64,000 nt of DNA from Takakia lepidozioides (lineage: Eukaryota > Plantae > Bryophyta). Shown here piece after piece: positions 16,464 through 17,795 of the stretch. The position numbers and the translations under genes were made by a program. The notes beneath the pieces are model-generated. The model ran no database searches and was not told the DNA's origin. It saw nothing but the letters and a program-made list of their open reading frames with translations. Every line of letters starts with the position of its first letter. Position 1 is the first letter of the stretch. The stretch covers positions 35,774,001 to 35,838,000 of the forward strand of contig CM060732.1 of NCBI GenBank assembly GCA_030704615.1, read 5' to 3'.

Positions 16464-17795
16464 TCAAAGTCCTGATCTGCTGATGAATGTGGAAGGGAGT
16501 TTTGCTTGGTTCTCAAACATTGGTAGTAGAAAGGGAATGTGAGTGTTAAACAGAGGCAACATACCACTGTCTGATGATAAAGCTATTGATTGAATCTCAG
16601 GGTTACCATGAATATAACCTCTCCTTCGCATTGCACTTTTAACTCTCCGCCTGCCAATGAAATCCATATGTTAGCCACCAGCAACAGCATGATAATTTGA
16701 TGTGTCCTCCCAGAAGCATCCTCAACAGCCATTTCTCGTATCAAGGGAAGTATGTTATGGCTTAACTTCTGACGAAGAGTAGTCAGGTTCAGAATTTATC
16801 ATACGGAGTCATTCTTACCAATATCGGGTCGTTGAGAGATGGTGCCAGAAGCAAGGGCCCCCATTGTGAGTGCGAGCCAAGGTCTCCCAATCTCCAAACT
16901 CTAGAGCCCAGGGGCAGTAGCGCAGCCAATAATTGATCACTGTGCGCTCTGCATATTCCACTTCCTCGCAATGTTCGTATTTGACATTGTGACTTGCTTG
17001 CCACCATGCATCTGTGTGATAAGCGGTGCTACAGTCCTCCATCCAATCCATATCCCAACACAAGCGTTCTTTCACAACCAGGGAGCAATTTAGTGGTATA
17101 CACACAACTTCTATTATCTAAAAATCATGGGAAATGTGAACATTACATGGTCATCTTCGTGAAGAAACACCCAGCATTGCATAGTCTCTATCTACAGCCT
17201 GCGAGAACATCAAGTTGTGCGCCCAAAGTGTCCTGGCATATTTTTGTTCAACTTCATGTTAAAGAAAGCAACCTGATTTGCAGAGGGCCAATACTGAGGC
17301 CACCATCCCCAATAGGTGCTGGCATTATAAAGCTGGTCTCCACATGTCTCAACGCATTTAGCAGCAATCTGTGCTTTTCCCGGTACTCATCGATATCTGG
17401 GAGGCCCACATTTGCATTTAAGTCATGTGTAACCCAAGCAAAATCTTGACATTAACACAAAGGGATGCCGAGATGGAGGGAAGTTTCAAAATCAGTCAGA
17501 GGCCCCAGCCATCCACTATAAATGACAAGCGGGGCACACCTTGGGGAGGTGGAAAAACATCGAAGAACTTGGCATTTGCATCTGCAGCCAGCCCCTTAAT
17601 TCGTGCCTTCACAGCTTTGAAATTCCAAATTTCATGACCCCTGGGCACTTTGAGCACCTCCCCAGGATAGATGATGTCGTCCTTCAGATTATTGGCCACT
17701 TGCAGGTGCTGCCACTCCACTCCTAGCTTGCACGACAGCGTCCACAGCGTGTCCCCCTCCTCCACCACCACATGCCCACCCACTTCCTCCATCAT
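16464..17795 (-). CDS. LysM domain + invertebrate-type (destabilase-like) lysozyme-like protein
   Basis: Exons 17795-17540 (LysM: VVVEEGDTLWTLSCKLGVEWQHLQVANNLKDDIIYPGEVLKVP), ~17444-17273 (LLNALRHVETS..GDGGLSIGPLQIS), 17028-16819 (AYHTDA..YWLRY..LARTHNGGP..TTRYW), 16650 to ~16464 (RRVK...). Phases join in frame. The 3' end is uncertain. Confidence 0.8.

Follow-up and report, generated by a model that had tools for sequence, protein, structure and literature searches.

A LysM protein with an i-type-lysozyme-like domain in the moss Takakia lepidozioides and its relatives in green plants

I-type lysozymes are usually treated as an animal family. The window (the whole 64,000-nucleotide stretch of Takakia lepidozioides DNA analysed here) raises the question of whether a plant gene encodes such a domain joined to a LysM module, where the domain came from and what it would do. 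An earlier note, made from the letters of the window, had read four in-frame exons with the LysM part first, had proposed a peptidoglycan hydrolase that was perhaps acquired horizontally and then intronised, and had floated three roles: antibacterial defence, symbiont control and remodelling of plastid peptidoglycan.

The gene, its transcript and its surroundings

The gene occupies the minus strand and has the following parts.

17796..17846, minus: 5' leader in an RNA-like contig, with an in-frame stop and two short upstream ORFs
17540..17795, minus: exon 1, with the ATG, a single LysM and a linker (spliced contigs, Pfam)
17643..17768, minus: LysM domain, residues 10-51, within exon 1 (PF01476, E 4e-11)
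17397..17539, minus: intron 1, 143 nt, GT-AG, phase 1, position and phase as in L187
17273..17396, minus: exon 2, with Glu105, Asp116, Ser120 and the GPLQI motif
17340-17338, minus: Glu105 codon, exon 2
17307-17305, minus: Asp116 codon, exon 2
17295-17293, minus: Ser120 codon, exon 2
17029..17272, minus: intron 2, 244 nt, GT-AG, phase 2
16819..17028, minus: exon 3, core of the lysozyme-like domain, 94% identical to a Sphagnum protein
16868-16866, minus: His181 codon within HNGGP, exon 3
16651..16818, minus: intron 3, 168 nt, GT-AG, phase 2
16464..16650, minus: coding part of exon 4, with the last helix of the domain, a low-confidence tail and the stop TGA
16047..16463, minus: 3' untranslated region (RNA-like contigs)

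When joined, the four exons give 777 nt encoding 258 residues with one stop, in agreement with the arrangement first proposed, and the motifs quoted at that time are all present (HVETS at 103, GDGG at 115, GPLQI at 122, AYHTDA at 129, YWLRY at 160, THNGGP at 180 and YWRRVK at 196). Each of the three introns has stops in every frame and is precisely spliced out in contigs from two RNA-like runs, X5 and X6, which belong to separate studies. The RNA status of these runs is the tool's guess, no run being recorded as RNA, and the splicing call relies on the skipped introns. Contigs of the DNA runs X1 and X2 are unspliced across the introns; contigs retaining intron 2 are also present, at low depth. 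One X6 contig bridges all four exons, and the transcript contigs together cover 17846 to 16047. An X5 contig runs without a joint as far as 17846, which is 51 nt beyond the ATG on the 5' side, and the ATG is closely preceded by an in-frame TAG. The RNA-seq check suggested earlier thus found every intron skipped and no further 5' coding exon in the RNA-like contigs, although such contigs cannot show the true start of the transcript. The gene is real, spliced and expressed, and has no second copy within the 64-kb window.

The leader contains two upstream ORFs. One starts at the ATG at 17837, encodes 7 residues in frame and terminates before the main start; the other starts at 17812, encodes 6 residues and has its own stop overlapping the main ATG.

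Other features recognized in the window are listed below.

11873-13204, plus: RING-H2 gene (Pfam)
26471-28744, minus: PPR protein with E, E+ and DYW domains, 757 aa, a single ORF (Pfam)
35413-39613, minus: NLR-like gene with a TIR, a weak NB-ARC, LRRs and a second TIR after the LRRs (Pfam)
44826-47944, minus: Ty3/gypsy-like element with RT, RNase H, integrase and, at its end, a PHD-like finger (by eye)
51193-54803, plus: long interrupted ORFs, transposase-like by eye, the first without a Pfam match
about 60100-63450, plus: DEAD-box helicase gene (Pfam)

That the gene comes from contaminating bacteria, is a pseudogene or has been read into the sequence by chance has a vanishingly small probability and was rejected, for although the domain has many prokaryote and phage relatives, the three spliced GT-AG introns are common to a Sphagnum-like gene, the protein groups with moss proteins in the tree described below, and the neighbours are plant genes (RING-H2, PPR-DYW, TIR-NB-LRR and DEAD-box).

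Several repetitive segments surround the gene. Just upstream, 17926-18066 is a high-copy short repeat with a summed contig depth of 15,000-36,000 against 33 in a DNA run. It has no second copy within the window and is possibly a MITE or SINE. The segment 18450-21000 is represented by multi-copy, divergent contigs from both DNA and RNA-like runs, and its longest ORF has no Pfam match. The plus-strand segment 15400-16150, which overlaps the 3' end of the lysozyme transcript contig, we take to be a broken reverse-transcriptase-like remnant (a motif recognized by eye, with no RT match in Pfam). A gap of 500 N at 48857-49356 adjoins the Ty3/gypsy-like element.

The LysM and lysozyme-like domains

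The LysM match in the window protein scores 43 bits, above the PF01476 cut-off of 20.9. Most orthologues have two LysM domains, whereas the liverwort models contain LysM2 alone and the window copy LysM1 alone. The window LysM is nearer to LysM1 than to LysM2 in all eight two-LysM orthologues compared (for example, 29 against 18 identities of 44), from which LysM2 appears to have been deleted in the window copy.

The catalytic domain spans about residues 86-210. Searched singly against Pfam, exons 2, 3 and 4 matched no family. A profile of nine plant domains, on the other hand, found four i-type lysozymes of PF05497 in the PDB (8bbu, 3ab6, 4pj2 and 2dqa) at E-values between 5e-8 and 1e-6, no other entry scoring below E 0.85. 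Structural comparison used models of the Physcomitrium and Sphagnum orthologues as stand-ins for the window protein. The full-length orthologue model has leech destabilase as its best match (Z 8.9), and the domain model superimposes best onto destabilase 8bbu (VIA; Z 10.4, rmsd 3.8, 108 residues aligned), the next match having Z 7.9. In a Foldseek search with an orthologue model the top six rows were i-type lysozymes, none of them under E 0.001. The active-site loop is poorly modelled, with pLDDT under 50 at residues 24-62 of the Sphagnum model.

Glu105, Asp116, Ser120 and His181 align with Glu34, Asp46, Ser51 and His112 of destabilase, whose roles are described in PMC10126035. Glu105 is kept in 26 of the 27 LysM-clade rows, the remaining one being a gap, and the other three residues are each kept in all 27. 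The catalytic acids of i-type lysozymes lie 11-12 residues apart, a spacing that Glu105 and Asp116 of the window protein share. The position of Ser120 is less constant outside the plants, with Ser in 35 of 63 prokaryote-type rows. Two motifs, PAPxGD and P[WMY][AS][LV], are specific to the plant proteins (25/27 LysM-clade rows against 0/63 prokaryote-type rows). The domain has 1-5 cysteines (median 3 in 27 domains) compared with 14 in destabilase, and the seven-disulfide feature is absent. The gathering score of PF05497, 26.2 bits, is reached by one of nine plant proteins; five more match below it and three have no match.

Fold and residues thus identify the predicted protein as a LysM module joined to an i-type-lysozyme-like domain, as the earlier note had recognized from the motifs and as the PDB profile matches, the destabilase alignment and the fold match now bear out. 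Because the cysteines, the secretion and the Pfam score typical of the animal family are lacking, the protein is best described as a green-plant variant of the i-type lysozymes, one that had been catalogued before now.

A hydrophobic N-terminus is absent from all 23 LysM-clade proteins tested and present in all 28 prokaryote-type proteins tested. The measure was the maximum 12-residue Kyte-Doolittle value, a proxy for secretion rather than SignalP, which is 0.23-1.56 for the plant proteins and 2.04 or more for the prokaryote-type proteins. The highest 19-residue hydropathy is 0.94, that is, there is no N-terminal transmembrane helix. No plastid transit peptide is visible, the segment ahead of LysM being 7 residues in the window protein and 0-54 residues, mostly under 20, in the clade; the Closterium model P0016 alone has a Ser-rich stretch of 50 residues there. 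These values, together with the in-frame stop ahead of the ATG in the RNA-like contigs, agree with the original description of a protein lacking a signal or transit peptide.

Distribution and origin of the family

A search with the exon 3 protein gave 19 matches among 20 candidates, and one with the domain gave 21 among 32. Named members come from Sphagnum, Physcomitrium, Marchantia, Riccia, Selaginella, Diphasiastrum and Closterium. The label Mesvir1 was confirmed as Mesostigma, which adds a further LysM-clade member; Chlat1, Mesen1 and Gb_ presumably stand for Chlorokybus, Mesotaenium and Ginkgo. An HMMER search of 1.84 billion representatives returned 2088 matches, and names were checked for 18 new ones among the 150 matches listed. 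These matches listed include LysM-fused proteins of Picocystis salinarum, Chloropicon primus and [Myrmecia] bisecta, as well as further eukaryote-like members, often marine, of which four or five contigs carry the domain in one ORF. Among the same matches no member bears an angiosperm name, and no named LysM-clade member was found in ferns, hornworts, Chara, Micromonas pusilla, Ulva, Prasinoderma or Cyanophora. By its sequences, the LysM-lysozyme is a conserved Viridiplantae family extending from green algae to gymnosperms.

The three introns are in the same place and phase in L187, a Sphagnum-like peat contig, and 118 of 125 residues are identical between the two genes (dN 0.029, dS 1.21, dN/dS about 0.02). 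The gene is under strong purifying selection. Such slow evolution would be unlike that of a typical defence family.

The tree has 100 rows and 125 columns, is unrooted, was made without animal sequences, and its bootstrap is not fully settled. With that scope, the proposed phylogeny separates the LysM clade, a second plant clade and the prokaryote rows. The window protein clusters with moss proteins (bootstrap 91, SH-aLRT 93). The LysM clade, the second plant clade and the two combined are each set apart from all other rows by a single branch, with support of 99/89, 98/82 and 99/99, respectively. The second clade lacks LysM and includes proteins of Mesostigma, Closterium, Spirogloea, Selaginella and ferns.

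In the second clade (P0167, P0169, P0183, P0186, P0165, P0166, P0171-P0173 and P0031) the domain is often N-terminal in long proteins, some of which carry IQ motifs and weakly match DUF3490, the domain at the C-terminus of NACK kinesins (E about 0.005, under the cut-off). In the fern copies the HNGGP motif is altered. Two labels in the LysM family call for caution. P0309, labelled Diacronema lutheri (a haptophyte), falls within the 90% cluster of the Picocystis protein and its label is probably due to contamination. The Closterium models P0017 and P0019, in which the LysM-lysozyme is joined to GH18, hevein and kinase parts, are probably merged gene models.

Outside the plants, 796 of 2389 candidates matched in a profile search of short proteins, most of them having a single domain. 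Of 204 pattern matches in GTDB contigs, 193 are relatives, and 64 of the 80 retained are titled Planctomycetota, a count biased by the Phycisphaerae lead sequence; viral contigs contain at least 597 relatives (597 of 600 pattern matches). In whole-genome sampling the family occurred in 10 of 301 genomes of the phylum of a Planctomycetota MAG, the seed included. A cyanobacterial origin was rejected: in the phylum of a Cyanobium MAG one genome of 401 matched, and this was the seed itself, whose matching stretch contains a TGA. Plant profiles score about 97-125 bits on prokaryote-type proteins and 32-36 bits on animal structures. The nearest non-plant relatives, as far as sequence comparison indicates, are therefore signal-peptide proteins of Planctomycetota and phages, not of cyanobacteria, and the prokaryote and phage kinship named at the outset holds in the profile searches, the GTDB and viral contigs and the tree.

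Other searches were less productive. The plant profile found no relatives among 16 pattern matches in genome contigs, annotated phages gave one weak match, and none of six proteins (three prokaryote-type or MAG proteins plus others) matched PHROGs. The viral loci (L081-L160) encode a signal-peptide i-type-like lysozyme, in some cases among replication-type genes as judged by eye, and no recurring lysis cassette was seen by eye beside the lysozyme gene in the 80 loci.

The higher plant-profile scores on prokaryote-type than on animal proteins make one early uptake the simplest reading, and a single acquisition from a bacterium or phage before the chlorophyte/streptophyte split is likely. This closeness is one of scores, and since animal rows are absent and the tree is unrooted, both donor and direction are inferred. 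One of 208 prokaryote-type proteins has a LysM fusion and is placed among the prokaryote rows, which suggests that the plant fusion arose separately. Most plant peptidoglycan genes have been reported to be non-cyanobacterial (PMC7154730). Of the proposed horizontal acquisition followed by intronisation, the prokaryote and phage kinship survives; the gene is, however, not peculiar to one land plant, any transfer would have been ancient, and the introns are common to the Sphagnum-like gene.

Possible functions and comparison with known systems

The reading we prefer, at slightly less than an even chance, is that of a non-secreted muramidase for turnover of the plant's own plastid peptidoglycan. 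In the first step LysM would anchor the protein to a glycan that contains GlcNAc, and the Glu/Asp pair would cleave the MurNAc-GlcNAc bond by hydrolysis in the manner of animal i-type lysozymes; this step as a whole is quite probable. In the second step the substrate would be plastid peptidoglycan, which is somewhat more probable than otherwise if the first step holds. The protein might enter the envelope space without a signal, as reported for moss DipM1, which is located at the chloroplast surface while having no predicted signal or transit peptide (PMC4015805), or it might gain access after envelope damage or plastid turnover. It would then supply a glycan-cutting step beside the peptide-cutting DipM. 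The plastid wall is favoured by the missing secretion signal, by the constraint on the sequence and by the taxa in which the family occurs; of the three roles first floated, the taxon distribution favours plastid peptidoglycan.

The range of the family overlaps that of the plastid-peptidoglycan toolkit in the named taxa, Chloropicon and Picocystis included, although the overlap is imperfect and was not statistically tested. Chloropicon is among the few chlorophytes reported to have the toolkit (PMC10784329), and Picocystis has eight of ten toolkit genes, compared with two to four of ten in Chlamydomonas, Ostreococcus and Micromonas RCC299 (PMC4815162, table S5). Gymnosperms are reported to retain the toolkit, while several angiosperms keep most Mur genes but not a full PBP. 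The latter counts against a plastid role, there being no angiosperm-named member among the matches listed. Further gaps are ferns, M. pusilla, Ulva, Prasinoderma and Cyanophora; for several of these the pathway has been reported. Moreover, without import a protein of the cytosol has no route into the envelope space, and no transit peptide was seen. An ancestral gene would also fit this range if angiosperms and core chlorophytes had lost it for reasons unconnected with plastid peptidoglycan.

Under this reading, the evolutionary course would begin with uptake from a bacterium or phage before the chlorophyte-streptophyte split, after which the protein would have lost its signal peptide and gained LysM, and the gene would have disappeared from angiosperms. 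In a bolder version, an i-type-like lysozyme of Planctomycetota or their phages would have been taken before the split, stripped of its signal, fused to LysM and kept wherever plastids build peptidoglycan, as a glycan-strand hydrolase needed for plastid division or wall turnover, and a sister copy would have been recast as an intracellular protein with IQ motifs. We regard this bolder version as tentative and rather unlikely to be right in all its parts.

The main rival is an antibacterial muramidase, which would control microbes and not plastids, either from a cytosolic store set free when cells are wounded or die, or by attacking intracellular bacteria. An antimicrobial action is known for animal i-type lysozymes (PMC10126035), secreted proteins of bacteria and phages are the closest relatives, and bacterial autolysins share the layout of LysM plus hydrolase. 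This alternative is nevertheless unlikely, considering that by the hydrophobicity proxy none of 23 members has a signal peptide, dN/dS is very low, the 2019 table has a single copy per species (PMC6362431), and single-celled marine algae also have a member.

Less probable again is that the protein is not mainly a glycosidase, but either a Ser-His-Glu isopeptidase or an intracellular glycan-binding sensor or scaffold. The invariance of Ser120 in the LysM clade, compared with its partial conservation in prokaryote-type rows, and the two plant-specific motifs would fit such a function, as would the sister plant clade, whose IQ motifs and long tails indicate reuse of the domain inside cells. The triad Ser51/His112/Glu34 is, however, itself a proposal for destabilase (PMC10126035), both muramidase acids are invariant, and fusion to LysM points to a glycan.

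Action on chitin or chito-oligosaccharides, as fungal walls or signals, instead of on peptidoglycan is improbable to a marginally greater degree. LysM binds chitin as well as peptidoglycan (PMC2728734), a title cited in PMC10126035 refers to chitinase activity of the Tapes i-type lysozyme, and the lower-ranking fold matches of the model include a Ralstonia chitinase (Z 6.3). Yet the protein is not secreted, no named angiosperm member was found although chitin signalling is most elaborate there, and the prokaryote and phage relatives would suggest a wall substrate.

For the cutting and turnover of plastid peptidoglycan the LysM-lysozyme offers one testable candidate. The 2019 table (PMC6362431) has a single entry for it in each of Physcomitrium and Marchantia (locus label MPTK1_6g09090), two plants in which knockouts are readily made, and the catalytic residues for mutation are named above. 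The surprise lies in the family-level pattern rather than in the window copy, which is an orthologue of auto-annotated proteins: the i-type lysozymes extend into a large branch of prokaryotes and phages and into two clades of green plants. A published tree had set the prokaryote/phage branch aside (PMC10126035, methods).

The architecture itself had been tabulated. Supplementary Table 3 of Van Holle and Van Damme 2019 (PMC6362431) has rows for LysM/destabilase in Marchantia, LysM(2x)/destabilase in Physcomitrella and Picea, and LysM(3x)/invertebrate-type lysozyme in Klebsormidium. We infer that these belong to the same family. It gives no entry for Chlamydomonas, Micromonas RCC299, Ostreococcus or four angiosperms, but Sphagnum, Selaginella and Ginkgo, where members were found, are blank as well, which makes its blanks weak evidence. 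Neither "lysozyme" nor "destabilase" occurs in the main text of that paper, and "Mp6g09090" does not occur in one Marchantia LysM preprint (10.1101/2022.12.28.521631). UniRef has automatically named several orthologues "lysozyme" (Physcomitrium, Sphagnum, Marchantia). Those entries are tabulated or auto-named only. The earlier note had allowed that this might be a well-known conserved streptophyte family: conserved it is, across Viridiplantae, but no functional or evolutionary study of it was found in the openly searchable literature.

The i-type lysozymes and destabilase (PF05497) share with the plant family the fold, the Glu/Asp pair, the GxxQI and HNGGP motifs, as well as the Ser and His proposed to form an isopeptidase site. 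The plant family differs from them in its low cysteine content, the lack of a signal peptide, the fusion to LysM, its scores mostly below the Pfam cut-off and its plant host. The destabilase-like proteins of Planctomycetota MAGs and uncultured phages are about 40-51% identical in the domain (profile-profile E 1.7e-49) and also have few cysteines and the catalytic residues, but they have a signal peptide, a single domain with the one LysM exception noted above, and no introns.

The lytic transglycosylases with LysM and SLT domains (MltD type) likewise combine LysM with a lysozyme-like fold. SLT is the second-rank fold match, with Z 7.9 or less against 10.4 for destabilase and 7-17% identity, and Atlas neighbours are labelled Destabilase and/or SLT; nine proteins gave no PF01464 match. 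SLT enzymes are further marked by a mechanism that uses a single Glu and is not hydrolytic; the window protein keeps the second acid, Asp116, which to our knowledge typical SLTs lack.

DipM (LysM plus M23 peptidase), present in moss, charophytes and Cyanophora, is similar in being a LysM-targeted peptidoglycan hydrolase with a comparable set of plants and, in moss DipM1, no predicted targeting peptide (PMC4015805). It differs in that its M23 peptidase is of cyanobacterial origin (PMC4015805), whereas the lysozyme-fold domain was not found in 400 sampled genomes of the Cyanobium MAG's phylum. The orthologues have no M23 match, and the NCBIfam DipM models match their LysM part alone, far below cut-off. 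PPASP (PMC4815162) has a transmembrane segment and a C-terminal LysM, whereas LysM is N-terminal and a transmembrane helix absent in the present family. Compared with these systems, the domain architecture (the 2019 supplementary table, PMC6362431) and the UniRef "lysozyme" names were already known; new here are the overlap in range with the plastid-peptidoglycan toolkit, the lack of a visible secretion signal in 23 of 23 members and the loss of the second LysM from the window copy.
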